From positions 63-64,062 of the forward strand of contig CAZYVR010000002.1 of assembly GCA_964651145.1 (NCBI GenBank): a stretch of DNA of 64,000 nucleotides. Direction: 5' to 3'. This stretch comes from an uncultured Victivallales bacterium. Its GTDB lineage: Bacteria > Verrucomicrobiota > Lentisphaeria > Victivallales > GWF2-45-14. The notes beneath the pieces were generated by a model. The model ran no database searches and had not been told where the DNA came from. It saw only the letters and a program-made list of their open reading frames with translations. The stretch's first letter is position 1. Every line of letters begins with the position of its first letter. Of this stretch, positions 1,158 to 21,533 are shown piece by piece. A program made the position numbers and the translations under genes.

Positions 1158-3023
1158 ATGAAAAATCTATTGAAAAAAATGAAAAACGCCGGACTCTTGA
1201 ACAGCATTGACGTCAAGTTTGCCGAATATATGCAGCGCATTTCTGGCAACGGCGATGACGATTCCTTGCTGTTGGCGGCCGCTTTGGCTGGAAATGCTTT
1301 GATTAATGAAAAACACATCTGTCTTGATTTGGGCTTTTGCGCTGGAAAATCAATTCTGGAAATATTTCCGGAAATGCCATTTTCCTCGCGCTCCGAATTT
1401 GAAGACGCGCGCTGCCCCGCTCTTGAAGATTGGCTTGATTCCTTGAACGCCAGCTCGGCGGTTGGGAAGCCTGGCGATTATGTCCCATTGATTCTTGACT
1501 CGAAACAACGGCTTTATCTTTATCGATACTGGAATTATGAACATGAACTGGCAGGCAATATTCTCAAGCGCGCCAGACGTGAAAAAAACAATATTGACGC
1601 GCCTTTGCTCAAGGACGGCCTGGCCCGCTATTTTCCCGAGTCCGGCATTCTCCCTGATTGGCAGAAGGTCGCCGCATGCGCCGCGGTCACAAATAATTTC
1701 TGTGTGATATCCGGCGGTCCGGGGACAGGCAAAACCACAACTGTTGCCAAAATATTAGGCTTGCTTTTGGAGCAGGCCAAAGAGGAATCCCTTGACATTG
1801 AGCTTGCCGCTCCGACCGGAAAAGCCGCCGCCAGGCTTTTGGATTCAATTAAAAACGCGGCGGACAAACTCCCGTGCCAGAACAATGTGAAGGCAAAAAT
1901 GCCGGAGCGTTCAAGTACTATCCATCGCCTCCTTGGCTATATCCCTGATTCTCCGTATTTCAGATTCAATAAAGACAATCCATTGCCCCTGGATGTTTTG
2001 ATTGTGGATGAGGCTTCAATGTTGCCGTTGCCGCTGATGGCAAAACTTTTTGAAGCTGTTTCGGAAAAGGCAAAAATTATTTTGCTTGGCGACAAAGACC
2101 AGCTTGCGTCCGTGGAGGTGGGAGCTGTTTTTAATGATATAATGGAAGCGGCCAATATCAATAATTTTTCGCAAGCCTTTTGCCGGGAATATATGGAGCT
2201 GACTGATATAAACATGGCTGAGGAATGTCTTTCAGAAGCGCGTTCCTCTCTCGTAGATTGCGCCGTGCTTCTGACTCATAGTTACCGCTTTGATTCCAGG
2301 CGCGGAATAGGGCTTTTGAGCAGCTCCGTCAATTCCGGCGAAGCAACGCGCGCGCTTGAAATAATAGATTCCTCAAAGGACACTGTGGCGCGACAGCCTC
2401 TTCCGGGCGCGAATAAATTTAAAAGCGCTTTGCGTTGCAAAGTTGAAGAGTATTTTTTTCCATATTTTGCGGCGGCGGACATAGCGTCCGCCTATGCAGC
2501 CTTCAGTTCTTTTAGCATTTTGGCAGTTGCCCGCGAAGGGAGATGTGGCGTGAAAAGCATAAACGGCATCATTGAAAATATTCTAAAGGATATGGGCGTC
2601 AGCGGGGCAGGGAACGCCTTTTATCATGGACGCCCCGTAATGATTGCGAAAAATGACTACAATTTGGGCCTGTTTAATGGAGATGTCGGCTTGTTGTGGG
2701 AAGACGACGGCGGCGGATTGCGCGCGTATTTTCCTCAGGGGGACGGTTCTTTTCGTGAGATAATGCCCGCGTCATTGCCGGAGCACAACACTGTTTTTGC
2801 CATGACTGTTCATAAATCTCAGGGCTCAGAATTCAACAGTGTTTTGATGGTTTTTCCGGAAAGAGACATGCCCGTTCTTTCAAGAGAACTTGTCTACACT
2901 GGCATCACCAGAGCGCGCGAATATGTCGAAGTATGGGCGGACGAAGCGGTCTTTAAACAGGTGGTCTCCCGTCGCATCCTCCGCCATTCCGGACTCCGCG
3001 ACGCTTTAGCACCAATTAACTGA
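1158..3023 (+). CDS. recD: Exodeoxyribonuclease V alpha subunit (SF1B helicase)
   Basis: Walker A GGPGTGKTTT, APTGKAA, DEASM, GDKDQLASV, TVHKSQGSEF, YTGITRA; start set at ATG 1158, 2 nt after the recB stop. Confidence 0.95.
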   Translation: MKNLLKKMKNAGLLNSIDVKFAEYMQRISGNGDDDSLLLAAALAGNALINEKHICLDLGFCAGKSILEIFPEMPFSSRSEFEDARCPALEDWLDSLNASSAVGKPGDYVPLILDSKQRLYLYRYWNYEHELAGNILKRARREKNNIDAPLLKDGLARYFPESGILPDWQKVAACAAVTNNFCVISGGPGTGKTTTVAKILGLLLEQAKEESLDIELAAPTGKAAARLLDSIKNAADKLPCQNNVKAKMPERSSTIHRLLGYIPDSPYFRFNKDNPLPLDVLIVDEASMLPLPLMAKLFEAVSEKAKIILLGDKDQLASVEVGAVFNDIMEAANINNFSQAFCREYMELTDINMAEECLSEARSSLVDCAVLLTHSYRFDSRRGIGLLSSSVNSGEATRALEIIDSSKDTVARQPLPGANKFKSALRCKVEEYFFPYFAAADIASAYAAFSSFSILAVAREGRCGVKSINGIIENILKDMGVSGAGNAFYHGRPVMIAKNDYNLGLFNGDVGLLWEDDGGGLRAYFPQGDGSFREIMPASLPEHNTVFAMTVHKSQGSEFNSVLMVFPERDMPVLSRELVYTGITRAREYVEVWADEAVFKQVVSRRILRHSGLRDALAPIN

Positions 3024-4271
3024 ACTTGCGGCTTTGCGCGGGAAAAGAATGCTTAAGAGCGTGTTTGCTTCGGGCGCTTTTTTGTCTTTTTGAACATTTA
3101 ATTCGGAAAAAGAACTCAAGCCCAGAACTAATCGAAGCATATCAGTTTCATGGAGCTTGATGTTTGCGTCGCTGTTTTCGTTTTTTGAAATTGAAATATT
3201 TCCTTTGTCTATTATCAAAAAAACAGATTCTTTTCCTATTCCAAGTGACAAGCTTCCTTCCCAGTTTGAAGCCATTGATTTTTGAAGGCGTTGTTCCAGT
3301 TCAGGCTTCATTCTTGAAAAAATTGAATGCAGGTTTACAATTTGCAGCATATTGCTGGAAATGCCGCCATAAGTCTCGATTGTTTTGAAACGGAGCGGAA
3401 GCTCTGTCAGAGCCTGGATGATGCTTGAGTCAAATGGCATGCGCGCTGTCATTCTTTTTATCCCTTTTTTAAACGCATAATTATTTATATGCGCCAATAA
3501 CGCCTGAATGACATAGGGCTTTTGGGGGTCATATCCATGAAGGTGGATTCTTATTCTTGCTTCAAAATCGCTGATTTCATCTTCGCTTTCAGTTGTTTGG
3601 ATATGTCCAATTATTTTGCCGTTTTCTTCATAGACAAGATTAAGCGGGTCTCTTTTTTTGCATTGCGCAGGCTGTTTTTTTTCTTCCGCTGAAAGAACTC
3701 TGCTTCCATTGTAAAGGCTGTTGAAATTTTCTGAAAGTACCAAGGCGCTTGCGTGGTCTTTAGCAGAATGAAAAGGCCTTATTTTTGCGAGGCATTCCTT
3801 TGCTATGGGGACGGCTCCTTCAATAATTCGCGACGCGCCAGCGCGCGCCACTGTTCCCACGTTGAACTCGAAGTATCTGCGCGAGAATCTTTTGTAGCCA
3901 AATCTGGAATAGTATTTGCAGAGGCCACCGAGTCTGGATAGATCGTAATCGCACTTGTTCATCCATTTGATGGTGTCCTCGAGAATCAATGTGCCAAGGC
4001 CCTTTCCCTGCATTTCCGGGTGAATGCAGACGCCGCCAACATCGCCTTTTAGAATTTTGGCTTTGCCTATGCGCAGCCAATCTTTCTTTATATGGACGGC
4101 TCCGATTATCCTGCCGTTCTCCAGCATTATCCGCCATTGCTTCAATTCGTGGCTTATGTCAGCTTTTTTTTCGCTCCATTTTTTTGAGCCTTTTTTTAGG
4201 TCTTGATTAAATGCCGCCGAGGACACATAAAGCAATCCGTCAATGTCTTTTTTAGTGGCTGTTCTTATCAT
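3006..4271 (-). CDS. Eis-like GNAT acetyltransferase with a C-terminal SCP2-like domain
   Basis: GNAT motif A GDVGGVCIHPEMQGKGLGTLIL; YYSRFGY; C-terminal L.I.KGNISIS...L.RLVLG resembles the Eis sterol-carrier domain. Confidence 0.75.
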   Translation of the reverse strand: MIRTATKKDIDGLLYVSSAAFNQDLKKGSKKWSEKKADISHELKQWRIMLENGRIIGAVHIKKDWLRIGKAKILKGDVGGVCIHPEMQGKGLGTLILEDTIKWMNKCDYDLSRLGGLCKYYSRFGYKRFSRRYFEFNVGTVARAGASRIIEGAVPIAKECLAKIRPFHSAKDHASALVLSENFNSLYNGSRVLSAEEKKQPAQCKKRDPLNLVYEENGKIIGHIQTTESEDEISDFEARIRIHLHGYDPQKPYVIQALLAHINNYAFKKGIKRMTARMPFDSSIIQALTELPLRFKTIETYGGISSNMLQIVNLHSIFSRMKPELEQRLQKSMASNWEGSLSLGIGKESVFLIIDKGNISISKNENSDANIKLHETDMLRLVLGLSSFSELNVQKDKKAPEANTLLSILFPRKAASSVNWC

Positions 4272-4277
4272 TTTTTG

Positions 4278-6368
4278 CTACTCCTGAATAAGAATGTTTT
4301 TTCCGGGATCAAGCTTGGCTTTTAATCTTTTTCCCGAGCTGAGTTTTACGGTGAAGCTTCTTTGCTTGTCTCTTGTATTTTCAATCACAAGCTTTTTGAT
4401 TTTCCTATTTTTCATTTTAAAACTGACGCCAAGCCCGGACGCTGTGTAAATGTTGGAGAAGCTTAAGTTTTCCCAGCTTTCTGGAATGCCGGCGGCCACA
4501 AACAAGGTTTTTCCATTGTCCGCGGCAAGCATTGTGTTCAAGGCGTACACATATGCGGCGTGAGCTGAAAGGTATCCAAAGAGTATCCAGAACCCGTCAG
4601 GCCTAATTTTTTCAGGAAAAATGCCGTGAGTGTTTGTAAATTTTACAACATGCTTTAAGCGTTTGAAGGTTATTTTAGGGTCTATTGCCGAAAATGCAAT
4701 TGCCGCTTTGCATTCCGTCCATGGCCAGATCAGATTTCTGAATGTCCCAGGGTTTGTCATTCCCCATTCGCCCTGACTTTCTTTGTATGCGTTCCGAACA
4801 TTTAGCGCTCCTATCCCTTCCGGCTGGCTGAATAATTCATAAGTAAATGAAGCCGATGTTGTTCTTCTTGCGTTCTCCCATGGATATATAAGGCCATTGC
4901 GAATGTTGCCTTGCAGAGATATTTCAAGTCCAGCGAGAATTTGCTCGCAGTTGCAGTCTATTTTTTGGGATAATACGCGGCAACCTTCGATATAGCCTTT
5001 GAGTCCTTGAATCAAAGGAAGCAGGTGCGAAGTGTCGTTTAATCTGGGGATGTTTTCATCGGCTCCGCCTATTTCCTTTATTATATAGCTATTTCCTTTT
5101 TTGACAACAATTTCAGCAATAAGAAAATCAAGGATTTCCTTTATCAGAGGAAGCCTTTTTTTAAGCTCTGTCTTGTCGCCCCAGAAGCGGTATATGTCAA
5201 AGAGTTGCAACAGCATGCAGCAGTTGTTCCACTTTTGAATGTCAGGCATTTCTTTGGCGTTTTCAAAGTATGTGCTTATTCCGTCATAATTGCACATCCA
5301 AGGATAATATGCGCCTGGCCGCCCAAGGTCGGACGCGTATTTTTTTGCCATTTTTAGACCATGCTGATAAAAGTCCAAAAGCTTCTTGGCTGCTTCTCTT
5401 TGATTCGCGGTCACAAGGGCGCGCGCTACGAATGTCATGTCCCAGAAACATGCGTATCCTCCGCTCTTAAACGCGTCGTAAAGCCCTTCTGTCACGAAGC
5501 CTGTCTTTTTGTTTTGGGATGCTTTTATCATCCACAGACTTGTGTCGTATATCTTTTGCATTTCTGCGTCTGGCAATTTGACATCCGTTGCCGAGTGATA
5601 CTTTTTCCATAATTTGCGATGTTCTTTTTCTATCTGTTCAAAGCTTCCCTTTGCGGCTTTCTTTACCAATTCAAGGCTTTCCGCTTCTGAAGCTTTAGCA
5701 TGCGTGTTGTCCAGCATTGATACATATCGGGTGATGATTTCGCCTCTGTTGACATTGCTTGCTTCTATGGTTGCCACATCTGAAGCTTCATCTTTTATAA
5801 TCTGTTTGCCCGCGAAATCTATGCCCATGCAGATATGGCCTTTTATTTTTTCAAAAGAATATTTTCCGCGCGCAAAATTATTTTCATCATATGTATAGGA
5901 CATTTTTATTTTGTCAATTGCCGGATGATTCAAGTTTAAGTGCCATATTCGCGGAATCCTTCCGTAAAAGACAATGGACGGCTTGGCCCCTTCTGCTGTC
6001 CAAAGAACCTTGTAGTTTTCCACATATAAACCATCTTCCGTCAGGAACGTTTTTATGCGCATTTTTATGATGCACGCTTCAACGTCGGTTGTCAAAATAC
6101 CAGTCTTTGGATTGAAGTTTTGCTTGAATGAGCCTACTTCAAATAGCTCTCCGTCCGCTCCTGTTATTCTATAAGGAAACTGAGCGATTGGAATCATTCC
6201 TCTTTTTTTTGTTCTGTGCGTTAGTTTTTCCCAGCAGCATATTGCCCCTTCGTGTTGCTCCAGATGGATGTGCCCGCTGTCGCAATGCATGCTTCCCGAG
6301 TAGTCAACCATGACGGAATCAAGGCCGTTTCCAAGGGATAACGGGATATATGGTTTTTCAGGCTTCAT
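4278..6368 (-). CDS. (alpha/alpha)6-barrel glycoside hydrolase/phosphorylase, GH65-like
   Basis: YACFWDMTF resembles GH65 FWDTE; IKEIGGADEN resembles the GH65 GPDE general-acid region; C-terminal beta-domain LPESW..LSF..I....GL.VS; no signal peptide. Confidence 0.55.
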   Translation of the reverse strand: MKPEKPYIPLSLGNGLDSVMVDYSGSMHCDSGHIHLEQHEGAICCWEKLTHRTKKRGMIPIAQFPYRITGADGELFEVGSFKQNFNPKTGILTTDVEACIIKMRIKTFLTEDGLYVENYKVLWTAEGAKPSIVFYGRIPRIWHLNLNHPAIDKIKMSYTYDENNFARGKYSFEKIKGHICMGIDFAGKQIIKDEASDVATIEASNVNRGEIITRYVSMLDNTHAKASEAESLELVKKAAKGSFEQIEKEHRKLWKKYHSATDVKLPDAEMQKIYDTSLWMIKASQNKKTGFVTEGLYDAFKSGGYACFWDMTFVARALVTANQREAAKKLLDFYQHGLKMAKKYASDLGRPGAYYPWMCNYDGISTYFENAKEMPDIQKWNNCCMLLQLFDIYRFWGDKTELKKRLPLIKEILDFLIAEIVVKKGNSYIIKEIGGADENIPRLNDTSHLLPLIQGLKGYIEGCRVLSQKIDCNCEQILAGLEISLQGNIRNGLIYPWENARRTTSASFTYELFSQPEGIGALNVRNAYKESQGEWGMTNPGTFRNLIWPWTECKAAIAFSAIDPKITFKRLKHVVKFTNTHGIFPEKIRPDGFWILFGYLSAHAAYVYALNTMLAADNGKTLFVAAGIPESWENLSFSNIYTASGLGVSFKMKNRKIKKLVIENTRDKQRSFTVKLSSGKRLKAKLDPGKNILIQE

Positions 6369-6386
6369 GATAATATTCCCCTTTTT

Positions 6387-8300
6387 TTATTCAACATCAA
6401 CCCATATCGGGCTGCTCCAGGCCATTTCGCCGTCAATTTGCGTTGCGCGCAGGTAGTAGCATGCGCTTTCTGTTATTTTTTCATCCATAGTTTCTTTTTC
6501 AAATATCCCTTCGCGTCCTGGTTCAGGCGGATAGGGATACGTTGCCACGTCAAATGATCTCCATGTTTTATTGTCCTTTATTATCTGTGTGAGAAATGTT
6601 GTTTCCGTGCCATTGACTTTCAGTGAGATGCTTATGTCTGAATCTTTTTTGACTTTTATTTCCGACCCCATTGATTGTCCATTTATTTTGAAATCTAGGC
6701 ATATGCGCGCGCCGGTTGTGGCATAAACGCGCCTGGCATTCAAAGCTTCCCAAATACTTTCTCTTGTCAGGTCTTTTGCCAAAACAGCAGTCAAGCCGCC
6801 TTCATATCTTTGCTTTGAGCGGAGCCATTTTGTTTTGCCTGTTTGCCCGCTATGGCTGTCGCTGCCAGCCACAAAGCCGCATCTGTTTTTATTGTTTAAA
6901 AGCTTATGGATCGTATTTTTGTCATCGCCATTTTCTGGAATGCTTGGCAAGCCGTAACTGGGGCGCGCGCAGTCTTCATATTCATGGCTTCCCCAGCAGC
7001 TGTATATTTCTGCAAGCCGCATTTCAGGCGGAGCTTTATAATTCCATATTTTGCCGTTTCCCAGATGGAAATGAGGAATAATAATAACATCGCGTCCAGT
7101 CATTGCTTGATAGTATTTTTCCACGCCTATCATTGGTTGATGGTATCTCTCATCTTTTTCGCAATCCATTAATTCTTTAATGTTTAGATTTGGGTCAGGA
7201 CTGATCAAGCAATAATCGCAGACACTGGGATGCGCTGTTATTTCAAAACCGAAAAATGTGACATAGCGCCCTGGCTCGTTTGCCGCTTCTGTTTCCGCTT
7301 TTATTTTATCCCAAACATCTTCCCGAAAATCCAGATGGTCATTTATGGCCGCAAAATCAAGCGCGGCTTCTTTTCGCCCATAATCAAGAGCGTCCTTTAT
7401 TGTTCCAAGGCCGTCTGACGCGTATGTGTGGACATGGTATTCTCCCCAATAGATATTGCATTCATCGTCTCTTTTGCCCGCGCAAAAGTTGCTTGTTCCA
7501 ACAATGTCTCCGCATTCGGCTTCCACTCTGAAATCTTTTCCTGATTTATTTTTGAAAGTGAACTCTTTCACTCCTTTGTCTTCTTTGGCAAAAGTAATTA
7601 TTTTAGGCAAGTCAATATCATTGTCAGTCGCGAAAAGTGAAATTTCTCCTGTGAAATAAGGATCAATGTTGTCATTGAGGTCGGTTGCGTGAACTATTCC
7701 TCTGCCTGTTTCGTTATTGCTTGCTGACGGCAGGATAACTGTTGCTTTTTGGGCTGTTTTCCCGCAAACATCTACTCCAATTTGCTCTTCCAAAAGACTG
7801 TATCCGCTGATGCTTGCGCGCCTGTCTCCATGTGGGTCAATGGCAGTGACAAAATATGCCTTGCACGCAAAGAACGGAGCCTTGGCTCCTCTGTTTTCCG
7901 GCAACGAAATGTCCCCATATTTTAGGACAAGCTTTTTGTTGGCAGGGAGTCCTTCTGGAAATATAACAAAAATGTTTTTTCCGAAACGTCCAGAATGCCC
8001 GTCTTCAGTGAAGAAGCATGAATATGTCGGATTTATAGTGACTTTAGCCTTGGCTTCATTCTCTTCAGCAAGGCATGTGTAACCCACTACTGACGGATCA
8101 TCTATTTGCGGTGTTGTATAAAAATGAGGAACGGTTATTCGCAAAGACCCGCCTGGCGCGATATTTTTAGCGCATGCGTAAGACATTGCATACTCGTGCC
8201 ATGATTCTGTTTTTATGGTTTCGCCTGGTTCAATATCAAGATGTCCAAATCCTGATATTGTTTCCTCTTTCATCAATTTTGAAACTTCAGAGCTTAACAT
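6387..8300 (-). CDS. DUF3604 / PHP-like (CehA/McbA-type) metallohydrolase
   Basis: Metal-ligand motifs YWGEYHVHTYASDG, DFAAINDH, HFH, GFVAGSDSH; LTRESIWEALNARRVYATTG; C-terminal YYLRATQ.DGEMAWSSPIWV. Confidence 0.75.
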   Translation of the reverse strand: MLSSEVSKLMKEETISGFGHLDIEPGETIKTESWHEYAMSYACAKNIAPGGSLRITVPHFYTTPQIDDPSVVGYTCLAEENEAKAKVTINPTYSCFFTEDGHSGRFGKNIFVIFPEGLPANKKLVLKYGDISLPENRGAKAPFFACKAYFVTAIDPHGDRRASISGYSLLEEQIGVDVCGKTAQKATVILPSASNNETGRGIVHATDLNDNIDPYFTGEISLFATDNDIDLPKIITFAKEDKGVKEFTFKNKSGKDFRVEAECGDIVGTSNFCAGKRDDECNIYWGEYHVHTYASDGLGTIKDALDYGRKEAALDFAAINDHLDFREDVWDKIKAETEAANEPGRYVTFFGFEITAHPSVCDYCLISPDPNLNIKELMDCEKDERYHQPMIGVEKYYQAMTGRDVIIIPHFHLGNGKIWNYKAPPEMRLAEIYSCWGSHEYEDCARPSYGLPSIPENGDDKNTIHKLLNNKNRCGFVAGSDSHSGQTGKTKWLRSKQRYEGGLTAVLAKDLTRESIWEALNARRVYATTGARICLDFKINGQSMGSEIKVKKDSDISISLKVNGTETTFLTQIIKDNKTWRSFDVATYPYPPEPGREGIFEKETMDEKITESACYYLRATQIDGEMAWSSPIWVDVE

Positions 8301-8309
8301 TTTAAACCT

Positions 8310-11225
8310 TCACTTGTTGATTGTAAGATTTGAATAATTTTTTACATCATGAAAATTCTTGTCAAGAATGCTTATGCAACTCCATTCTTTATTAAAACTT
8401 GACAGATTTTGTCGGGCAAGATTAATTCCAATGCAAGCCTTTGTTTCTTCGAAGTTGCTGAATGGCATGCGAATTTCAGCAATCCATGTATCGTCCTTAA
8501 CAGATGTTGCTGTTTCCCACTTGCCATTCCATGAAGGATTTTCTTTTTGTCTTAGCGTACATTTGGAATCAAACTTTGCGGCAGAAGGATTAATGGCAAA
8601 ATGAAAATATGTTTGTTGGTCTTTGTTTGCGTCAATGAATATTTCAACGCAATCATCTTCATCTTTTTCGTCCCAAAAGCCATAGTCATGCTTTCTTTTT
8701 TTTGTCTTGACGCTTTTCATGTTTGCGGACTTGCATATGATGGCAATATAAAGATTTTCTTTGTCATTGACAAACTTCACTTCTGTTTGCTCCATTGCTA
8801 ATTTTATTTTCTGGTTTCCATGCTCAAATTTCACAAAAGAAGAATAAGTTTTACCATTTCCCCATGCCGTTTCAGAAAGATTGCCGTCGATATTAATGAC
8901 GCCATTTTTTCGAGAGCTTGTCAGGTTTCTGTTCTTATATTTATTTTGTGTCTTTTTATCCAACACTTTCAGATTCTTTAGGATGTTCTTGCTTTTTTGG
9001 AGCCTGTTAAATTTTTCAACAAGTTTTTCATATGTCAACAAATAGTTTCGATGCCCCCATTTTCCTTTTTCAGGCGGATATGCGGGGTAACCTTCATACA
9101 TTTGAGGCTTGTCTTTTACCTTGCGCAATGTTTCAGATATGAATTTGTCTATGTTTTTGGCTGAGTCAATCCCTTTTGCTATTTCTGCGTCTCCATCCGC
9201 TATTCCCCCATTTTTGTACAACTCCTTGGCTTTAAAATAGTGCATCCATATTTTGGAATAAGCCTCCCAAAGGGAAGCATATTTAAAGTAATGGACTACA
9301 TAGCGTCTAGCTAACAAAGACATTTTTATATTGTTTTCGCCGAGAAGCTTTTCAATGCTTTCTCGAGCTTTTTTTACTGCTTCATGTTGTTTTTTAATTC
9401 CTTCATAGTTTATGAATTCTTCGGGAGAAATATCCAGTTTGTTTTTTGAAAGAGTTCCAGTTTCCTCTATGGCAGATTTTGCCTGGCTTACTCTTAGCTT
9501 GATTCTTGCAAGCAATTGCTCAGGATTTTGCAGATATTCCATATAAAGCCCGCTGTTCATTAAAGGCAGCATGGCCTCGCCCCCTTCGCCCCACATGACT
9601 TTGCATGCTTGCGGAAGAAACTTTTTCATAATCGAGTCTGGAGCAGCACTGTCTTTTAGCGGATCAATATAATATCTGAAATATTCGCTGTCTGGACCTT
9701 CGGTGTTCCATGCGTATTCCGCGCAAAGAATAGTCTGGATAGGGTTTAAAGACAATTGCGTCATCACAAATGGGAATGCGTAAAATATAATGTCTCGATC
9801 ATTATTGAAAAAGAATGTCTTTGAAAATCTTGGGTTTGTGGCAAAAAGAGGCTTATAGTCTTTCCCAAATTCAAAATATGCGTCAAAGGCGCGTTTAGGG
9901 AACAAATTTCGATATGATTCCAAGTCTTTTCGCATGGCTTCCCGGTAAAGCATGCATATATCCTCAGGAATGAGTATGTTTATTTTCCTGTAATATGCTT
10001 TTAACTTTTCTTTTTCGTATTCAGCAAATTTTTTAGGCATATCAAGGCCTATGTTTATGGGAAAATTTTCCTTCATCACATTATCTGGGCTATATGGGTA
10101 TACAGTAAAAACAAATTTAAAATTAGGATTGTCTTTTCTTATTATATCATAGAGCAGGTTGATCACGTGGGCGTCTGCGGATGCTCTATCATTCCCAAAG
10201 CGTGTTTTGGTCTCATCTAATCTATCGTTCCACTCTGCGTAATTTAGCGTTGTCAAGCCAGTGTCAATGCTTTCAAAATATCCATAGTTATAATTTCCTG
10301 CTTTGATTATTTTTGAATATTTCTCGGCTTCCTTTGTCAGTAAATCGTCCCTGCTCCACGAAATATAATGATCTTTATGGCGGTTTGATATTCGTACATT
10401 TTTATACTCAGGCTTTTCTTTGTTTTCTTTGACGGTTCCAGCGGATTGAAAAGGAAAAACGTCATACATGAACAAATCAATGCCGCGCTCATTTGCATAT
10501 TTTGCTGTTCTTTTAGCCATTTTTGATGGAAAACGTCTTTTGTTTACAATCACTAAATTTATCTTTTGGGATAATAGCCAATCAATATATTCCTTCAAGC
10601 ATTCATAATAAGCATCTTTCGGAGGATTGTTGGCATAAACCATTTTTTCATTAAAAATTCCAGGCCGTCTCCAAACAGTTGAAAGACTGCCGTATCCAAC
10701 AACTCTGTGTTTGAAGTCTGGCCAATCTTTTATGTCTGCTATTCTAATTTTTATTTCATTTTTCTCTTTCAATAATTGATTAAAAGTCATTGCCGCATAT
10801 AAAACGCCCACTGGATCATTGCCTGCCATGATTATGTAATCATCCGTCATTTTTATTGCATACCCTTGAAGCTTTTTCGGGATATCTAGTGAGTCATTTT
10901 TTAGAAATTTTAAATATTTGTTCTCGTGCTTTTGCCCGATAAGTATTAATTTTGTCTTTGTTAGCTTTCCCGGAGAAGTGGTGTCTTTATAAATTGTTAA
11001 TTTTTCTCCACCAAGAAAAAGCACGCGTTTGTTTATCTCTTCCGCCGCAATTTGAGCTTGTCTCAAATTTGCCTGCACGACTATGGCATAATCTTTTAAA
11101 CTTAGATATTCTTTTTGGAATTTTAATTTTTTGGGAGTTGGAATTATCTCATAAGGCTCAGCGTTCATTAACGATGACACAGCCAAAATTACAGAAAACA
11201 AAACATGTTTTTTACACATTATCAA
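8310..11225 (-). CDS. Secreted glycoside hydrolase-like protein: GH20 domain-2 fold, barrel domain and C-terminal CBM9-like sugar-binding domain
   Basis: Signal peptide; IIPTPK, QGY.I...GNDPVGVLYAAMTF.QL, IKDWPDFKHR; AEYAWN; C-terminal IDGNLSE.AW...DDCVEIFID...W.AEIRMPF. Confidence 0.65.
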   Translation of the reverse strand: MIMCKKHVLFSVILAVSSLMNAEPYEIIPTPKKLKFQKEYLSLKDYAIVVQANLRQAQIAAEEINKRVLFLGGEKLTIYKDTTSPGKLTKTKLILIGQKHENKYLKFLKNDSLDIPKKLQGYAIKMTDDYIIMAGNDPVGVLYAAMTFNQLLKEKNEIKIRIADIKDWPDFKHRVVGYGSLSTVWRRPGIFNEKMVYANNPPKDAYYECLKEYIDWLLSQKINLVIVNKRRFPSKMAKRTAKYANERGIDLFMYDVFPFQSAGTVKENKEKPEYKNVRISNRHKDHYISWSRDDLLTKEAEKYSKIIKAGNYNYGYFESIDTGLTTLNYAEWNDRLDETKTRFGNDRASADAHVINLLYDIIRKDNPNFKFVFTVYPYSPDNVMKENFPINIGLDMPKKFAEYEKEKLKAYYRKINILIPEDICMLYREAMRKDLESYRNLFPKRAFDAYFEFGKDYKPLFATNPRFSKTFFFNNDRDIIFYAFPFVMTQLSLNPIQTILCAEYAWNTEGPDSEYFRYYIDPLKDSAAPDSIMKKFLPQACKVMWGEGGEAMLPLMNSGLYMEYLQNPEQLLARIKLRVSQAKSAIEETGTLSKNKLDISPEEFINYEGIKKQHEAVKKARESIEKLLGENNIKMSLLARRYVVHYFKYASLWEAYSKIWMHYFKAKELYKNGGIADGDAEIAKGIDSAKNIDKFISETLRKVKDKPQMYEGYPAYPPEKGKWGHRNYLLTYEKLVEKFNRLQKSKNILKNLKVLDKKTQNKYKNRNLTSSRKNGVINIDGNLSETAWGNGKTYSSFVKFEHGNQKIKLAMEQTEVKFVNDKENLYIAIICKSANMKSVKTKKRKHDYGFWDEKDEDDCVEIFIDANKDQQTYFHFAINPSAAKFDSKCTLRQKENPSWNGKWETATSVKDDTWIAEIRMPFSNFEETKACIGINLARQNLSSFNKEWSCISILDKNFHDVKNYSNLTINK

Positions 11226-11992: not shown

Positions 11993-12000
11993 GCTTCCGC

Positions 12001-12630: not shown

Positions 12631-12653
12631 TATCCGTTCCTCCATTGCTGTTT

Positions 12654-13844
12654 CTATATTTCTTCATTTTTAATGCTCATATATTTATTCCATATTTTGA
12701 GCTGGTCAATTATTATTTCTTCGCCGTGCGCTTTGTATGAACCGCCAATTTTTAACGTTGTTCCTTTATTTTCGTTTTTAATTTTGGATTTGTCAAACTC
12801 AATGGTGACTTCGCTTATGTTTTTTATTATTTTCCCGTCTTTGTAAATGGCAAATTCATCTTTTTTCTTGCCTTTGTTGGCCTTCCATGAGATAGCTACG
12901 TGATGCCATTTATCAGGCGTTTCGCCGTATCCAGCGAAAAAGCTGGGGCTGTGTCCTGAAAAGCGGACGCCAAATTTCTTAGTTCCACCGAACCCGCTGA
13001 AAATTTGAATTCTATTTGTTTTATCGCCTATTCCGTTTACCCAAAAAGTGACAAGGCTTCGTTGCGGATATTTGTCCATTTTTTTGTATTTTACTTTTTG
13101 CCAAAATTCAATGCATCCTTCGTCAAGGTTTATTTTTCCTTTTGGAGAATAGACTATTGCTGTGCCTGGTTTGTTATTTTTTATTTTCAAGGCATTGCCA
13201 AATTTGCCTTTCACTATTTCCATGTCAGGGGTTGATATAGTTGCATCGTAAGGGAAATTTATTCTGCCGCCATTTGCGAATATGGCCGGAAAGCTTTCAA
13301 AGTTCTCCTGAAACATCAGGCTCTTGATTGTTGGTTTGTAGTTGACTACTTTTGTCCCTTTTGAAATTCTCCAGTTGGCGATGCTGAAGGAGCCTTTGCC
13401 TTTATGGCTTAGTATTATAGATGTTTTGGATGCGCTTGCTGGTATGTATATTTCTTGCGACGATTTTGTCCATGAATCGGCATTGCTATAGATTCTGAAT
13501 AACTCTGGCATTAGTCTTATAGTTTTTCCGGAGTTGTCCCAAAATTTTGTTTGCATTTCAAAAAAGTTGCCTTTGCCTATCTCTCTAGCTTTCTTGTACT
13601 CAAACTCAATCTTGCATGAATGCCCGGGCAAGGCTCCTTGCGTTGGAGTGAAGCGTAGCTTTTCTATTGAATTGCTATTGTCGCCTTTAAATTGCAAAAC
13701 GTTCTTCCTGCCTGCCAACTCCGGCAGCTCTTTTATAAAGCCACCCTTGACAGTGGCTTTGCCTTCCTGAAGGATTCCGCCGATGCTGTTTGGGCTCCAC
13801 AGGCAAGCAATGGCAACAAGGCATGTTAATATTTTAACTTTCAT
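12654..13844 (-). CDS. Secreted protein with an N-terminal CBM-like domain and a C-terminal LamG domain
   Basis: Signal peptide; [42 protein letters not shown]. Confidence 0.7.
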
Positions 13845-13857
13845 TTTTTATCTCCAT

Positions 13858-16800
13858 CTATTCTAATATTATTGTTCCATAATTTATGGTCTCGGCGTGC
13901 GCATTACCTTTTCCTGACCATACAATCTGTGATTTTCGCGTTTTATATTTCCCGTCATTGTCGTCAACCGCTATTTCAAAGCCTATGACTTTTCCTTTTG
14001 CCGGAACAAACGACTCTCCGTTTGCGCTCTTTAGAGAGCTCCATGGAATTTCGATGTCCAGAGTGTAGCCATCATTGTTTTTTGAAGATTTAAGCTTGAC
14101 TGAATTTGCGTCGAAGTTCAGTCCGCCGCCATGTTTTATTGGAATGAATTTATTATTGGGCGCGAATGTTAATTGATAGTCTTCGGCTGTAAATCTGTTC
14201 ATATTGCTGGCTATGTCTATGTCAAAGAACAGCTCCACGCAGTCGCCATTATACAGAGCATTGTCTTTTGCTGGATCCAGCTTGTCATCTTTTACATTAA
14301 TTGCAAGATAGAGGTTTTTATTATCCCATGATGCGTTCACTTTTGCCGAAGAGTCCTCTTTGCCTGACCAGGCATTTTTGACTGTTTTTATTTTGACCTG
14401 TTCAGCTTTGTCCAGATGCGCAGTCATGGGATTTGAAGCGTCGGCGTGTTTTGCTATGAGCAGTTTTATATTCTTTTTGCTCACAAATTTAATTTCGCCT
14501 CCATTGACTTCCGTGACAGTTAATTGAACATCTAAATTTTCACTGTTTCCTGTTTGGATTACGGGGAAAAGAAAAAGCTCTTTGCCGCGTGGCTGAATTT
14601 TTTTGCTTATTGCCCCGGAGTTTAATTTCCAGTCCGCGCTTATGTTTGTCAGCTCTACGCCAAACTCTAATTCTTTATTGAATTTATTGCTTATTTGGAG
14701 TCCGACGCAAACCTTTCCGTCTTTTCCATTTATCAAGCGTATGAAATCAATGGAATAGCTTTTGGCAAATTCCAGTTTATCAAGAGCTATCTTCAGGCTC
14801 TTGTATTTTTCATTTGACATAATCATATAGAACGGCCTGCGGCTGAATGTGGCTTTGAAGCCTTTGGGAGATAACTCAGGGGGAAAAGGATTGCCCATTA
14901 TGTCCAGAAAATTTATTCCATCAGGAGAGCAGGCGATATCGTGCGTCTCTGCCTTTTTTCCAAAGTTCCAGCAAAACACTATATTTTTGTCTCCTTTGTC
15001 AAAAACTCCGCAGAAGTCGTTTGCCGATAAGTCAATCTGCTCCTTGAATTTTGCACCTTCCATTATTTCAGTCATTGCGTCATAAGCCATCAACGAAGGC
15101 CGGGGCGCTCCGTCATATTCAAGCAGGTTAAAGGTGCCAGTCCCTGGCCCAAGGTGCCCTGAACCGAAGCCCAGAATAAAATAGAAATGTTTTTGAATTC
15201 CAAGCGCCATTTGCATGATTTCTTTGCCTACCAGAAAGTTTGCCTGATCCTGAGGCGAGGTTGTGATAAAACGGCTATACGCCACTCTTTCAGGCTTAAT
15301 GTCATGATAAGCCGGGATGGTTGCCGTTCCCACCTCTGTGTTCCATACTGGCATAGGTTTGCCGTCCGAGGTTTTGTCGGCCACAATTTTAAAAAGTTTT
15401 TTTATGCTGTTTTCTTCGTTGTCAGCGGGCGACGCATATGTATGCACAGAGATCACATCCATCAGTTCGTTGGGATTTTCAGAGAAAGCCAGAGATTTTT
15501 TTACCCATCCCAAAGGGTCTCCGCCAAGATCGCCTGTGCCGCAAAGCCCCACTACTGTTGCGTCTGGGGCGGCTTGTTTTATTCCGTCATGAGCCGCTTT
15601 CAGAATGGGCATATATTCATTCCCGCGCATTTTGACAGTCGGTTCATTCCATACTTCCCACGCTGTGATTCTGCCTTTGTAATGCTCGGCCAATTTGCGT
15701 GTGTGCTCTTTAAATTTTTTCAAGTCCGGCAATTTCTGGTTGTATCCACGGCTTGAGCCGCCGAGGCTCTTTTTTTCAGAACGGGCCCAGGGCGGTATGG
15801 CGCTGAAGCATGTTCCCCAGCGTTCCCATTGACTATTGCCCAATTGATTGCCCAGGATGGGCATTACTTTCAATTTGTGCTTGTCTGCCAATTCCATATA
15901 TTTTTCGGCGCTTTCAAAGTTGAATCTGTTTTCTTCCGGGTGAATAAACGCCATATGGAAAATTTTAAATGTTCTAAGCCATTTTGCGCCTATGTCCCGA
16001 GCCAGTTTAAATTGTTTGTCAGGTTCCACTTGCCCCGTGAACATCAGCTCATATCTTGGTTTTATGCCCCAGAATTGCCTCCAGTCAACTACTTCCGCGC
16101 TTGGCAAATGAATTCCAAAGAAGGAGTTTTCTTTTAACTCAGCATTTTTTTCTTCTGTGATCACTCCAAAAAGGAACTCAGTTTTTGCCTTTATATTTCC
16201 CTTGGAGTCCTTCAGCTCCGCCCATAGCTTGTAAGAGCCGCGTGGCTGCTGCGAAAGCGTTATGACTTTTTCAATTGATTCATCTTTGCTTATTTCAAAT
16301 GCTTCTTTTTTTAGTGGCTTTTTGGTTCCATAATAGTAGTTTTCAAGGACATATTCTAAAGTCATGGCCTTTTCATCTTTTGTCGAATAAACTCTGCATT
16401 TTGCAGATACATCTTCGCTAGTGTAATATATAGGCATGCGATTTTCGGGGATTGATGACATGGCTATTGATATATCGTTTGCCGGGTTAAAGTCTGATGC
16501 CGCATTGTTTTCTTCTATTTGAAAGCCGTCAAACCATATGGAGCCATCTTTGTCGGCTGGGGCGACGGCGCGAATGCGGATGCAGTATCTGTTTTGGAAA
16601 CCGCGTTTTGCGGGGGCAAGAGGGACGGTGAAGCTTTTTGTCAGTCTTTGCCAGTCTGTCTGGCAGTCAACGGCAAAGCCTCCGAAGAGTCCGTCAGAAC
16701 CGGTAGTCTTTCCTGTTATATGCATTGCTCCGGAAATTTTTTTGCCTGGAATATTGCTTTGGACATAAAATGAAAGCGTGTAGCTTTTACCCGGCTCAAG

Positions 16801-17067
16801 CTTTATGGGCGCCGATATGAGGTCGTGAGCTCCTGCGCCTTTTTTGGTTATTTTTAGGCTTTTTTTCCCATGAACGGCAAAGTCATCAGCGCATTCAGGG
16901 GGAGCAAAATCTTTGCTTTGCGAGTAATACCGCCTGGAATGAACGCCCCATCCCCTCATGCCTGTCTCAAAGTCGCCATTGTCAATCAAATTTTCAGCTT
17001 GGATTATGCAGAGCTGTCCAAATGTCAGCAAAATAAATGCAAAATAGGACCTTTGTTTTATTTTCAT
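13858..17067 (-). CDS. Secreted clan GH-A glycoside hydrolase (GH39-like) with CBM4/9-like N-terminus and CBM9/DOMON-like C-terminus
   Basis: Signal peptide; NLIDNGDFE; acid/base WEVWNEP; nucleophile PVWNTEVG; C-terminal WDNKNLYLAINVKDD..GDCVELFFD. Confidence 0.75.
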   Translation of the reverse strand: MKIKQRSYFAFILLTFGQLCIIQAENLIDNGDFETGMRGWGVHSRRYYSQSKDFAPPECADDFAVHGKKSLKITKKGAGAHDLISAPIKLEPGKSYTLSFYVQSNIPGKKISGAMHITGKTTGSDGLFGGFAVDCQTDWQRLTKSFTVPLAPAKRGFQNRYCIRIRAVAPADKDGSIWFDGFQIEENNAASDFNPANDISIAMSSIPENRMPIYYTSEDVSAKCRVYSTKDEKAMTLEYVLENYYYGTKKPLKKEAFEISKDESIEKVITLSQQPRGSYKLWAELKDSKGNIKAKTEFLFGVITEEKNAELKENSFFGIHLPSAEVVDWRQFWGIKPRYELMFTGQVEPDKQFKLARDIGAKWLRTFKIFHMAFIHPEENRFNFESAEKYMELADKHKLKVMPILGNQLGNSQWERWGTCFSAIPPWARSEKKSLGGSSRGYNQKLPDLKKFKEHTRKLAEHYKGRITAWEVWNEPTVKMRGNEYMPILKAAHDGIKQAAPDATVVGLCGTGDLGGDPLGWVKKSLAFSENPNELMDVISVHTYASPADNEENSIKKLFKIVADKTSDGKPMPVWNTEVGTATIPAYHDIKPERVAYSRFITTSPQDQANFLVGKEIMQMALGIQKHFYFILGFGSGHLGPGTGTFNLLEYDGAPRPSLMAYDAMTEIMEGAKFKEQIDLSANDFCGVFDKGDKNIVFCWNFGKKAETHDIACSPDGINFLDIMGNPFPPELSPKGFKATFSRRPFYMIMSNEKYKSLKIALDKLEFAKSYSIDFIRLINGKDGKVCVGLQISNKFNKELEFGVELTNISADWKLNSGAISKKIQPRGKELFLFPVIQTGNSENLDVQLTVTEVNGGEIKFVSKKNIKLLIAKHADASNPMTAHLDKAEQVKIKTVKNAWSGKEDSSAKVNASWDNKNLYLAINVKDDKLDPAKDNALYNGDCVELFFDIDIASNMNRFTAEDYQLTFAPNNKFIPIKHGGGLNFDANSVKLKSSKNNDGYTLDIEIPWSSLKSANGESFVPAKGKVIGFEIAVDDNDGKYKTRKSQIVWSGKGNAHAETINYGTIILE

Positions 17068-17134
17068 TGTTTATATTCCTTATTTTTTGAGATGTTATTT
17101 TAATGTCTTTATTCTTGAAATTGCGATCTGATCC

Positions 17135-19642: not shown

Positions 19643-19644
19643 TT

Positions 19645-20394
19645 TTACAAACTTCCTTTCCAAAAAAACTTGTTCTCTTGTGATGAATAATAAGTGTTCG
19701 TAGTGTCTTTCGGGCAAACTCTTGGGTCTGTCATTTTTAGGCTGTTTGCATGGCCGTCAAAAAAGAGCGAGTTCATTTTTCTATTGTGCCTGAACTCAAG
19801 TGGGGAGCCGACTCCTAAATATACTCTGGCGCCATGCCATTCATAACCATCGTTTTCCGCAGCCAAAAGGCATTTTGACGAATTTTTTATTTTTGTTGTT
19901 GGAAGATGATATTTGCCTGCCAAGGGGGCAGTGAAGCCTGACACAAACCAGTTCATTCCGTAACTTGCAAGGACATAAGCTATTTCATTGTCTCTGTTTC
20001 TGAAGTAACTGGAATTTTTGTTGACTGGCTTCTTGGAATTCTCTGCGGGGCAGTAAAATAGCGAATCACTTGTGGGGGCTGTTGCGCTGCCACCTTTTAT
20101 GCTTAAATAATTAGAGGCAAGGCAACCTCTCCAGTCTGTGCTTGATGGGGCATTGTCTTCGTGAACTGCTGGCAAGTAATTATTATAATCAGTAGAGTAC
20201 ATGTTAAGGAAAAGGCCTAATTGTTTTAAATTATTGGAGCAGGACATTTGTTTAGCCATGTCGCGTGCTTTGCTAAGGGCAGGCAATAACAAGGACGCCA
20301 AAATAGCTATAACTGCTATAACTAATAATAATTCGATGAGCGTAAATCTAAGCCTGAGCCTGTTTTCTGTTTGATGAATTCTTGAAATGTTCAT
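19645..20394 (-). CDS. Prepilin-type N-terminal cleavage/methylation protein with H-X9-DG motif (DUF1559-like)
   Basis: [29 protein letters not shown]; CSNNLKQLG; FYCPAE; [14 protein letters not shown]. Confidence 0.92.
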
Positions 20395-21533
20395 AAAGAA
20401 AAATCCTCATGCTGATTTTTTTTTGTTGATTTTCTTTCTATCAGCCTTATTGGGATTCTGACTATGGTTCCGGGCTTGTAATTTCCCAGCGCCGCCCTTG
20501 CGCCTTCGCGGCCTTTTTCTTCTTCGCATTGGTCTACTGAGGTCAGAGGCGGCTCCAGATATTCGCAGAAGTCGAGATTTCCGCAGCCAATGACGCTTAT
20601 GTCTTCTGGAACATTGAGGCCGTTTTCCTTTAGAGCTTTCATTGCGCCTCTGGCAAGTTTGTCGGTGCCGCAGGCTATTGCTGTTATGGAGCGCTTTTTT
20701 ATATGCGGCAAAATTCTTGCAGTGGCTTCGTAGCCATCGTCCGCGGTCTCGCCAGGGAGGTCGTCCATAATTGCTTTTGGATATAGGGGAAGGTTGTTGG
20801 TTCTCATGAAATTATAAAACTCATCGCGTATTTCACGGTTCCATGCCCAGCACAACGGCTCGTTCAGGAATGCGATGTTTCTGTGTCCTGAATCCTTCAG
20901 AAATTGAAGCGATGTCCGGATGGCCAAGCCATTTGAATCTGTAATATGGATTATTCCATCGTAAAAGCCGTGGATTGTGCGACCCATTATAATTGTTGGA
21001 ATATTTTCGCCGAGGAGCTTGACTATTAGAGCTACATTTTCATTGTCCAGCTTGCCGCCGACAAGCACAGCGCGCAGGTCTCTTCTGGAGGCAATGCTGT
21101 TTATCTTGGAAGTGAGCTCGCTTTTGTCTTTGTATGGAACTGACGCGCAAATAAGATGAAATCCCTTTGCCGATGCTATTTCTTCCACGCCTTTCAAGAC
21201 TCTGGCGTGGTAAGAATTCGCAAAATCTGTCCCGCTCAGGATGAAAGCGATGCATGAAGGAACTGCGTATTTGTCGGTTTGATTGCTGGCTGTGTTGCCA
21301 TCGGCTACGAACGTTCCTTTTTTTGGGCGCCTGAAGCAGATGCCTTCCTTTATCAGTTTGTCGAGCGCGCGCTCGGCTGTTTTTACGCTGACTTTCGCGC
21401 TTCGCGCTATTGTTTTTATGTCGGGAAGCATAGCGCCGGGTTCAAGATTTTTTTTCGCAATATAGTTTTTTAGTTGATTGCTCAGCTGAACATAAATTGC
21501 GTCTGAACTGTTTTTGTCTAAAATTATATCCAT
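20391..21533 (-). CDS. GntR-family wHTH fused to a LacI-type sugar-binding domain (AraR-like architecture) transcriptional regulator
   Basis: [13 protein letters not shown]...LP....A....VS..T..RAL..L..EG....RP.KGTFV; C-terminal [12 protein letters not shown]...PPLTSV. Confidence 0.9.

Follow-up and report, generated by a model that had tools for sequence, protein, structure and literature searches.

Closest described systems

In the verrucomicrobium Verruconatronum alginivorum, a PulG-like pseudopilin that is one of 67 paralogs is encoded inside the alginate operon pgaptmp_000046-60 (PMC13274419). Proteome data show that the whole operon is up-regulated together on alginate, and the authors suggest that its lyases are exported through a type II secretion system (T2SS) (PMC13274419). 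We analyzed a locus of similar composition in an uncultured Victivallales bacterium, within a stretch of 64,000 nucleotides (metagenome contig CAZYVR010000002.1, positions 63 to 64,062) that is called the window throughout. The locus is an operon of carbohydrate-active enzyme (CAZyme) genes that includes two pilin-like genes, termed pilin A and pilin B. An earlier note on this DNA regarded it as the best candidate for an undescribed system in which pilin-like proteins would take over the capture and import function of the SusC/SusD pair (SusCD). Because a pilin gene within a CAZyme operon has already been published for a sister phylum (PMC13274419), the layout as such is not new. The form found in Lentisphaerota is a distinct variant, marked by coupling to a regulator, the absence of Gly at position -1 of the pilins and a mosaic of cassettes.

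The window operon resembles the V. alginivorum operon in that a pilin-like gene from a family of many paralogs lies among genes for signal-peptide-bearing polysaccharide-degrading enzymes, with no SusCD pair. However, the alginate operon carries its own SSF symporter gene, whereas no transporter is encoded in the window operon. The verrucomicrobial family members that were sampled have Gly or Ala at -1, whereas the window pilins do not. In addition, the window pilin gene follows and overlaps a gene for a GntR/LacI regulator.

DUF1559 proteins have 68 paralogs in Planctopirus limnophila, two of which are essential (PMC10632474), and 74 in Rhodopirellula baltica (PMC2754498). Published work repeatedly points to their very large number of paralogs without assigning them a function (PMC10632474, PMC2754498), and none of the papers found that mention DUF1559 gives a mechanism. 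The window pilins share with the DUF1559/H-X9-DG families of Planctomycetota, Verrucomicrobiota and Lentisphaerota the same FTLIELL...LLPAL helix and, by pattern, the C-terminal H-X9-DG hairpin. The planctomycetal and verrucomicrobial DUF1559 proteins that were sampled have Gly or Ala at -1 and no upstream regulator, whereas those of Lentisphaerota occur in CAZyme operons with a regulator at the head, and their -1 residue is unconstrained.

Other systems are similar in part. In the SusC/SusD polysaccharide utilization loci (PULs) of Bacteroidota, as in the window operon, a regulator, secreted or lipoprotein CAZymes and putative binding proteins are encoded together and presumably induced by the substrate, with one binding component per locus. 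However, the window operon has no SusC/TonB-dependent transporter or SusD, and a binding role for its pilins is hypothetical. Its sensor is of the cytoplasmic LacI type, in contrast to the SusR, hybrid two-component (HTCS) or extracytoplasmic function (ECF) systems of Bacteroidota. Competence type IV pili are, to our knowledge, the only established retractile type IV filaments by which a linear polymer is reeled into the periplasm by way of a secretin, and they provide a mechanical model for the import idea of the earlier note. Their cargo, however, is DNA, bound by dedicated minor pilins and ComEA, and a link between the window pilins and PilT-driven retraction is hypothetical.

In the bindosome of Sulfolobus, sugar-binding proteins with pilin-type signals undergo type IV filament-like assembly and serve sugar uptake (PMC4187195). 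The likeness to the role proposed below lies in substrate-specific sugar-acquisition proteins with pilin-type N termini that depend on a generic filament-like assembly system. However, bindosome proteins are true ABC solute-binding proteins (SBPs) encoded with transporters, whereas the window pilins have small heads of no matched fold and no adjacent transporter gene, and the bacterial envelope is diderm. The window pilins match no SBP family beyond the historical name of PF07596 (SBP_bac_10), and they do not qualify as bindosome-type proteins.

For Akkermansia, mucin import that depends on pili has been reported (cited in PMC13174399 and 10.1101/2024.03.27.586211). As cited there, Akkermansia muciniphila, with its loci MUL1 and MUL2, is likewise a PVC (Planctomycetota-Verrucomicrobiota-Chlamydiota) bacterium without canonical SusCD in which pilus-related genes serve to acquire and internalize a complex glycan. 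In the same accounts, however, Amuc_1102 of MUL2 appears as an archaeal-type pilin in a dedicated locus that contains PilM (Amuc_1101) and Amuc_1099/1100, and not as one of a set of paralogs within CAZyme operons.

A regulator-headed operon with two pilin-like genes

The operon runs from position 21533 to 3006 and consists of 11 tightly packed genes, all on the minus strand. The open reading frame (ORF) listing thus reproduces the co-oriented arrangement with a regulator at its head that had been described for this DNA, and Pfam and NCBIfam profile searches reproduce all of the domain calls. In order, the genes encode the regulator, pilin A, a lipoprotein with a GH20b N-terminal domain (GH20N lipoprotein), a clan-A glycoside hydrolase (GH), the LamG protein LamG396, pilin B, a second LamG protein (LamG263), GH20N+CBM9 (CBM, carbohydrate-binding module), a DUF3604 protein, a GH65-like protein and a GNAT protein (Table 1). 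As in a Bacteroidota-type PUL, a regulator, CAZymes and CBMs are encoded together.

The successive junctions measure -4, +2, +67, +13, +8, ~+8, -4, +9, +18 and +6 bp. The largest gap (67 bp) lies directly before the clan-A hydrolase gene, and all others fall between -4 and +18 bp. By this spacing, the 11 genes are packed closely enough for predicted co-transcription. The stop codon of the regulator gene and the start codon of pilin A share ATGA, and pilin A is predicted to be translationally coupled to the regulator. No strong or convincing minus-strand terminators were found within the operon, and there are no repeats, mobile-element ends or RNA families of note inside the locus. A convergent recD-like helicase gene (1134-3023) flanks the operon on one side, and on the other side the gene for alanine dehydrogenase (21628-22800) diverges from it.

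The control region contains a sigma-70-like promoter match (TTGACT-16-TATTAT, 21593-21566) just 5' of the regulator gene. The stretch 21557-21593, close to the regulator ATG, holds a palindrome (ATTATA-TG-TATAAT) together with TGTATAATC in two copies, and these overlap the predicted -10 element. These are pattern matches only. The palindrome and the TGTATAATC copies may form a candidate operator for autoregulation by the regulator, orthologues of which (51-82% identity) head the related operons.

The presence of two pilin genes inside one 18.5-kb operon has a probability of ~0.08 by position, which is not significant alone. The association of the pilins with the operon is considered real because comparative data support it, and not on the basis of position alone. 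The assignment of the pilin-like genes to the glycan operon is supported by the tight packing, the coupling to the regulator, the retention of a pilin B homologue in related operons and the recurrence of the layout across Lentisphaerota.

This recurrence was seen among 35 pilin-like ORFs in 30 loci of Lentisphaerota. Upstream of 19 of these ORFs, at a distance of less than 150 bp, lies a gene on the same strand. For at least 11 of these 19, the immediate upstream gene encodes a sugar-type regulator (10 Peripla_BP_3, 7 GntR and 1 AraC). The 33 downstream operon genes include those for DUF4838 (four), GH43, rhamnosidase, GH123_N, heparinase, LamG, CBM9 and F5/8-type C proteins. Transporters are only occasional downstream, with one SSF protein in addition to FecCD, the periplasmic binding protein Peripla_BP_2 and an ABC ATPase. 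The operons carry one or two pilins each, in a promoter-proximal position. In contrast, the neighbors of pilin genes in Verrucomicrobiota and Planctomycetota are heterogeneous and lack upstream regulators. Judged by these gene neighborhoods, the order "regulator, pilin-like gene, CAZymes" is a module typical of Lentisphaerota, of which the window locus is a good example, and the locus is a predicted substrate-inducible glycan-utilization operon of the kind typical for this phylum.

Verrucomicrobiota and Planctomycetota differ from Lentisphaerota in the partner genes as well. In loci from these two phyla (e.g., L029, L032, L064 and L076), the DUF1559 gene is often followed by a small ORF of 110-180 amino acids, and two of these ORFs match CarboxypepD_reg.

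Conserved core and inserted cassettes

Related loci were taken from the contigs of four clan-A hydrolase homologues with 52-84% identity (L082, L083, L084 and L085). The closest of them, L083 (hydrolase 84% identical), encodes the regulator, hydrolase, LamG396, a GH20+CBM9 protein and a pilin B homologue (54%). L085 (68%) encodes the hydrolase, LamG396, a pilin B orthologue (69%), DUF3604 (67%) and a GH65-like fragment (86%), with a conserved gene order around pilin B. The more distant L082 (52%) carries genes for the regulator, hydrolase, a 265-amino-acid protein of no assigned family, a pilin, DUF3604 (48%) and a GH65-like protein. Its pilin is 31% (BLASTP) or 35% (MAFFT) identical to pilin B and about as close to pilin A. 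Finally, L084 (66% by BLASTP, 67% in the database search) encodes the regulator, a truncated pilin-like ORF of 74 amino acids, the hydrolase and LamG396. In L083, L084 and L085, the gene after that of the clan-A hydrolase is an orthologue of LamG396 (53-73% identity). Three related loci (L085, L083 and L082) reach beyond LamG396, and each of them has a pilin B homologue. Across these contigs, the conserved core is made up of the regulator, clan-A hydrolase, LamG396, pilin B, DUF3604 and GH65-like genes. Within 1-8532 of L082, five sulfatase genes and a SulP transporter gene lie immediately upstream of its regulator-headed operon.

Two gene pairs, pilin A with the GH20N lipoprotein and LamG263 with GH20N-CBM9, occur only in the window among the loci compared. 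Pilin A is absent from L083 and L082. In L084, the 74-amino-acid pilin-like ORF (1066-1290; a called gene with FTIIELL and an early stop) occupies the gap between the regulator and hydrolase genes, which corresponds to the position of pilin A in the window. At the position of the window GH20N+CBM9, L083 has a true GH20+CBM9 enzyme. The GC fraction is low in the genes for the GH20N lipoprotein (0.356), LamG263 (0.304) and GH20N-CBM9 (0.36) and intermediate in pilin A (0.408), while the other operon genes range from 0.39 to 0.46. Because these genes are restricted to the window and low in GC, the operon is taken to be a mosaic with two added cassettes, and by this comparison the additions are probably recent. 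The inserted blocks span 8310-12013 and 17135-20394, and each carries one of two GH20N paralogs (26% identity over 560 amino acids). The pilin A and GH20N lipoprotein pair is not a conserved cassette that recurs elsewhere; this possibility was excluded because the lipoprotein is nearly an orphan in the database, with one 99% copy followed by matches of at most 25% identity.

Synonymous sites are saturated in most pairs, and the proportions of nonsynonymous (pN) and synonymous (pS) differences are therefore given instead of dN/dS. For pilin B, pN is 0.18-0.30 against L085 and L083, versus a saturated pS of 0.90-0.93, and because pN is well below pS these pilin B genes are maintained by selection. 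The L082 pilin gives a pN of 0.48 and a pS of 0.78. In the L083 pair, pN is 0.295 for pilin B versus 0.088 for the hydrolase, a roughly threefold faster divergence, as would be expected for an exposed binding protein.

Identity and structure of the pilin-like proteins

FTLIELL-type pilin N termini occur only twice in the 64-kb window, in pilin A (20346) and pilin B (12597). The two proteins are homologous over their full length (29% identity, E = 6e-21). Both have the class III signal pattern, with a short basic leader, a hydrophobic segment of ~20 residues, Phe at +1 and Glu at +5, and both exceed the cut-off of TIGR02532 (19.0 bits for pilin A and 22.4 for pilin B, versus 16.3). The TIGR02532 alignment begins at model position 4, which leaves the Gly column unmatched. 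Pilin A also matches PF07596 (DUF1559/SBP_bac_10) at 36.3 bits versus a cut-off of 23.3, but only over residues 42-89. No match of pilin B to this model was found at E<0.01, and its L085 orthologue gives a faint one.

By pattern, H-X9-DG is present in both window pilins and in 83 of the top 119 homologues. The curated model TIGR04294 is reached by neither window pilin and gives a sub-threshold score (15.7 versus 19) for the two pilin B homologues in L085 and L082.

Pilin A has 5780 homologues at E<=1e-5, the best of which is only 38% identical; the names on these homologues are Lentisphaerae, Victivallales and Lentisphaeria, and together with the N-terminal signature they point to Lentisphaerota as the probable phylum. 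An alignment of 73 sequences shows near or full invariance of C52, C115, Y66, Y145, H203, D213 and H215. The AlphaFold2 (AF2) model of pilin A has a mean confidence (pLDDT) of 75.9 and resembles a "lollipop," with an alpha1 helix (19-69) and a small head built on a four-stranded sheet. The H-X9-DG motif sits in a confidently modelled hairpin (blocks 201-220, pLDDT 94-96). A search of PDB structures with this model returned no neighbor below E = 1, and the top weak matches are type IV pilins. The family profile matches solved filament pilins and GspG (5wda) along alpha1 only. This segment scores best against the GspG and ComGC models, but the scores against the GspG model TIGR01710 are 32.6 and 21.9 bits versus a cut-off of 88.85 and involve the N-terminal helix only, which does not make either protein a GspG. 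A type I signal-peptidase site after ...LLPAL was considered and rejected on inspection, given a following residue that varies (S, N, G or K) and a hydrophobic segment of 24 residues.

A conserved N-terminal helix without Gly or Ala at -1

Prepilin peptidases (PilD) cleave after Gly or Ala (PMC3244431). The residue at -1 is neither in the window pilins, which have Arg (pilin A) and His (pilin B). Among the top 119 homologues, -1 is Arg in 67 and Gly in seven. In a comparison of loci from 80 reference genomes (L002-L081), Gly is found at -1 in 2 of 35 Lentisphaerota members and Ala in none, whereas Gly or Ala is present in all 20 members from Verrucomicrobiota and all 15 from Planctomycetota (35/35). 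Even among the pilin B homologues and the pilin-like remnant in L084 the residue varies (H, H, T, I and V). A search of the literature for a missing Gly(-1) found no paper.

Despite this freedom at -1, the residues that follow are constrained. F+1, T+2, L+3, E+5, the two subsequent Leu residues and the LLPAL end are invariant in the 73-sequence alignment. In six genes, the 24-codon segment that encodes the N-terminal part of alpha1 is invariant at codon position 2 in 22 of 24 codons and at codon position 3 in none, and 17 of the 24 residues do not vary. Since not a single third position is invariant, the conservation reflects selection at the protein level. The same pattern excludes gene conversion as the source of the conserved pilin 5' ends. 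Selection on the amino acids in turn argues that the segment may still engage conserved machinery. These comparisons would leave two possibilities: either the peptidase of Lentisphaerota has lost specificity at -1, or these pilin-like proteins stay uncleaved. The archaeal peptidase PibD has been described as flexible around the cleavage site (PMC4187195).

Compartments, transport and filament machinery

Sec-type signal peptides were recognized by eye in the clan-A hydrolase (...CIIQA|EN), GH20N+CBM9 (...LMNA|EP) and LamG396, and the N terminus of LamG263 is signal-like and hydrophobic. The GH20N lipoprotein has a lipobox, also read by eye (LASC), and its start is most likely the ATG at 19642 (MQKTK...LFFLASC) and not the TTG at 19717. 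The five products with Sec or lipoprotein signals (the hydrolase, the two proteins with GH20b N-terminal domains and the two LamG proteins) are thus predicted to function in the periplasm or extracellularly. The DUF3604, GH65-like and GNAT proteins, which by eye lack a signal peptide, are presumably cytoplasmic.

Pfam and NCBIfam searches revealed no TonB-dependent receptor, SusD, MFS transporter or ABC permease in the locus, and none was found in the four related loci. The other window ORFs that were scanned also lack a SusC-like TonB-dependent transporter and a SusD-like lipoprotein. The statement in the earlier note that the operon has no transporter gene is borne out in this respect, as no conventional transporter is among its ORFs. 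However, this absence had been used as an argument for import by pilins, and that use fails. Because the DUF3604, GH65-like and GNAT proteins lack a signal peptide, breakdown products need an inner-membrane transporter encoded elsewhere. Since such a transporter is needed in any case, a missing transporter gene does not argue for pilin-mediated import, and a pilus cannot replace the inner-membrane step. A stand-alone ABC ATPase gene of the UgpC/MalK/MsiK type (38461-39561, plus strand; 478 bits versus a cut-off of 432) has no adjacent permease or binding protein gene. It suggests ABC sugar importers that are encoded elsewhere and may share this ATPase.

Two features of the window had been proposed to supply filament machinery. 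The gene at 47817 is indeed that of a PilT/PilU retraction ATPase (397 bits versus a cut-off of 319). In contrast, the supposed PilGHI-like ABC operon at 55577-60706 encodes a generic DrrA/GldA-like ATPase and ABC-2 permeases. It was rejected as evidence for PilGHI since no PilGHI-specific family was matched. No PilM-like gene turned up in the window scans, and T2SS genes are missing from both the window and the Lentisphaerota loci that were retrieved. When all ORFs of 81 loci were searched with PilT by phmmer, there was one match, in a Phycisphaerae locus.

A possible glycan-binding role and its alternatives

The pilin-like proteins may be operon-specific glycan-binding subunits that work with shared type IV filament machinery, a reading that is favored here only tentatively and that could well be wrong. 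Under this model, both pilins would belong to the superfamily of type IV filament subunits and be dedicated to the operon. The invariant, selected alpha1 helix would engage the shared assembly machinery, while the head evolves fast. The head would bind the glycan of the operon, a role that elsewhere belongs to SusD and surface glycan-binding proteins (SGBPs) or to SBPs. The cell's generic type IV filament machinery would assemble the pilins or carry them on display, and there their heads could hold the polymer or oligosaccharides at the envelope and feed the enzymes and unlinked transporters. Breakdown products would then cross the inner membrane by a transporter encoded elsewhere. Such an arrangement would resemble the archaeal bindosome, and a version driven by retraction would resemble DNA-uptake pili. 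By analogy, the presence of one or two pilins per operon, their promoter-proximal position and their fast-evolving head may parallel the logic of SusD/SGBP and solute-binding proteins.

Several observations weigh against a glycan-binding role. The residues that are conserved across paralogs seem to point to a common function and not to a substrate-specific one. The head of ~150-180 amino acids has no recognizable CBM or SBP fold and no significant structural neighbor, and its model in pilin A is only moderately confident in the variable loops. Without Gly or Ala at -1, leader cleavage and assembly may not occur. In the L083 pair, pS is 0.90 for the pilin B homologue versus 0.58 for the hydrolase, and because it exceeds that of the hydrolase, the L083 pilin B may have been replaced and not co-inherited. 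The L082 pilin may be a paralog, since its identity to pilin B is low and pilin A is at least as close to it. Furthermore, some CAZyme operons of Lentisphaerota that are headed by a regulator begin with no pilin gene, such as a second one in L082, where a GntR/LacI regulator gene is followed directly by a GH20 gene. Finally, the authors of the closest published case favor export of the enzymes by the T2SS (PMC13274419).

That last proposal has a counterpart here. The pilins could be pseudopilin variants that are co-induced with the CAZymes and join a T2SS pseudopilus, which would push the folded enzymes over the outer membrane or tether them at the surface, with no capture of glycan. This alternative seems rather unlikely. 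In its favor, the five products with Sec or lipoprotein signals and with CBMs for polymers probably must cross the outer membrane, and alpha1 fits the GspG and ComGC models best and matches the solved GspG. However, well-studied T2SSs export dozens of unrelated proteins with one pseudopilin set, and this generality means that no cargo-specific pseudopilin is required for each operon. In addition, the GspG scores are far under the cut-off, no T2SS genes accompany the pilins in the loci analyzed, and the lack of Gly or Ala at -1 applies to a pseudopilus as well. The precedent for T2SS export is itself a proposal, made for the V. alginivorum alginate operon with its PulG-like paralog (PMC13274419).

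The same N terminus can be read differently, as that of a protein that keeps its leader and remains a bitopic inner-membrane protein. Its periplasmic head would then serve as an anchored binding protein, scaffold or chaperone, and pilin ancestry would persist only in the anchor. The near absence of Gly and Ala at -1 in Lentisphaerota, in contrast to the sister phyla, agrees with this alternative, as do the prevalence of Arg among the top homologues, the variation even among pilin B homologues and the specificity of prepilin peptidases (PMC3244431). A basic residue ahead of a hydrophobic segment also looks like a plain signal anchor. However, a mere anchor would not need invariant F+1, T+2, L+3 and E+5 or a selected 24-residue segment, and the family is clearly the same as that of the members with Gly or Ala in sister phyla. 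A peptidase with relaxed specificity at -1 is also conceivable, given the flexibility of PibD (PMC4187195). On balance, an uncleaved membrane protein is unlikely. An absence of any functional link, in which members of a large paralog family with fast turnover land in many operons, is very improbable. It would account for the 5780 homologues and the lack of a close orthologue of pilin A, for the closest related locus without pilin A and the lone truncated ORF in L084, and for the heterogeneous neighbors in Verrucomicrobiota and Planctomycetota. It is at odds with the presence of a pilin B homologue in every related locus that extends far enough, with pN well below pS in L085 and L083, with the strong enrichment in Lentisphaerota of regulators directly upstream and CAZymes downstream, and with the co-induction at the protein level that was reported in a verrucomicrobium (PMC13274419).

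Retractile import, as the earlier note pictured it, is a sub-case of the glycan-binding-subunit reading and seems improbable. A broader version would hold for PVC bacteria in general. Each operon would supply a pilin whose variable head is the receptor for its glycan to a shared retractile filament that, like competence pili with DNA, reels the polymer through a secretin to the periplasm and replaces SusCD, and Lentisphaerota would have a peptidase that does not require Gly(-1). This extension by analogy is doubtful to a similar degree.

Enzymes of the operon and other features of the window

The enzymes of the operon are all remote from characterized proteins. The closest solved relative of the clan-A hydrolase is the GH39-like 5jvk (E = 2e-9), and the GH65-like protein matches kojibiose phosphorylase 6w0p (E = 5e-7). 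Our best guess is that the substrate is a glycan that contains N-acetylhexosamine (HexNAc).

In Pfam, the GH20N proteins match no GH84 or GH20 catalytic domain, and only the N-terminal domain is recognized. The GH20N family has 1198 representatives at E<=1e-10. Pfam lacks a model for its central domain, and in 42 of 51 members the GH20b N-terminal domain alone is recognized. The AF2 model of GH20N+CBM9 (pLDDT 88.5) was matched by Foldseek to BtGH84 and CpNagJ with E-values of 2.5e-21 to 1e-17, a probability of 1.0 and TM scores (target) of 0.5-0.6, at 11-15% identity to the GH84 O-GlcNAcases. On this model, the central domain of the family is predicted to fold like the barrel and helical bundle of a GH84 O-GlcNAcase. 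By eye, the catalytic Asp-Asp pair of GH84 is not evident in GH20N+CBM9, where the equivalent stretch is YFESIDTG.

Table 1. Genes and control region of the operon, in the order of transcription (window positions)
Feature	Position	Strand	Evidence and description
Promoter/operator region, divergent from the alanine dehydrogenase gene	21534..21627	-	pattern matches only
Regulator, GntR-type helix-turn-helix and LacI-type sugar-binding domain	20391..21533	-	PF00392 E 9e-12; PF13377 E 1.5e-27
Pilin A, DUF1559-type	19645..20394	-	leader ...RLRLR then FTLIELL; H-X9-DG residues 203-214; PF07596
GH20N lipoprotein, 835 aa	17135..19642	-	PF02838 E 1.2e-6; signal ...LFFLASC
Clan-A hydrolase, CBM4_9 + GH39/GH10-like barrel + CBM9, secreted	13858..17067	-	Pfam
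LamG396, secreted, C-terminal LamG/ConA-like domain	12654..13844	-	PF13385 (Laminin_G_3) E 4.6e-5, below cut-off
Pilin B, conserved operon member	12001..12645	-	leader ...RKKTH then FTLIELL; H-X9-DG residues 171-182; TIGR02532
LamG263, small, secreted, window-specific insert	11222..11992	-	PF13385 E 1.6e-9
GH20N+CBM9, 971 aa, secreted, GH20b-N + GH84-like barrel (predicted) + helical bundle + CBM9; window-specific	8310..11225	-	Pfam, AF2, Foldseek
DUF3604 / CehA-McbA-type metallohydrolase	6387..8300	-	PF12228 E 6.7e-16; NF038032 under its cut-off at E 2.7e-18
GH65-like (alpha/alpha)6 glycoside hydrolase or phosphorylase	4278..6368	-	PF03632 E 3.3e-9
GNAT acetyltransferase, Acetyltransf_9 type, last gene, converges on recD	3006..4271	-	PF13527 E 8.8e-14

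Elsewhere in the window, a flavin mononucleotide (FMN) riboswitch (RF00050, 106.5 bits) at 39643-39789 on the plus strand lies upstream of ribBA, which is followed by ribH, nusB and further riboflavin genes, an ordinary arrangement. On the minus strand, 23849-32025 encodes a histidine kinase, an amidohydrolase, a 465-amino-acid protein of no family, an FAD_oxidored (PF12831) protein and a 251-amino-acid protein of no family. A weak neutral-ceramidase-like ORF (30541-32025) stands after the gene for the 251-amino-acid protein.

Implications for Lentisphaerota and related phyla

Two questions meet in this locus. One is how PVC bacteria without SusCD capture and internalize polysaccharides. The other is what the DUF1559/H-X9-DG families do, which form the largest paralog group in some planctomycetes and include essential members (PMC10632474). 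If the pilins prove to be passengers or to assist secretion, what remains is an ordinary operon of CAZyme genes. The layout in Lentisphaerota ties single paralogs to single substrates, so that the question becomes testable operon by operon in cultivable relatives. Moreover, the loss of Gly or Ala at -1 within a selected N terminus would mean either a prepilin peptidase of new specificity or membrane anchors derived from pilins, and either would be of interest to the type IV filament field.

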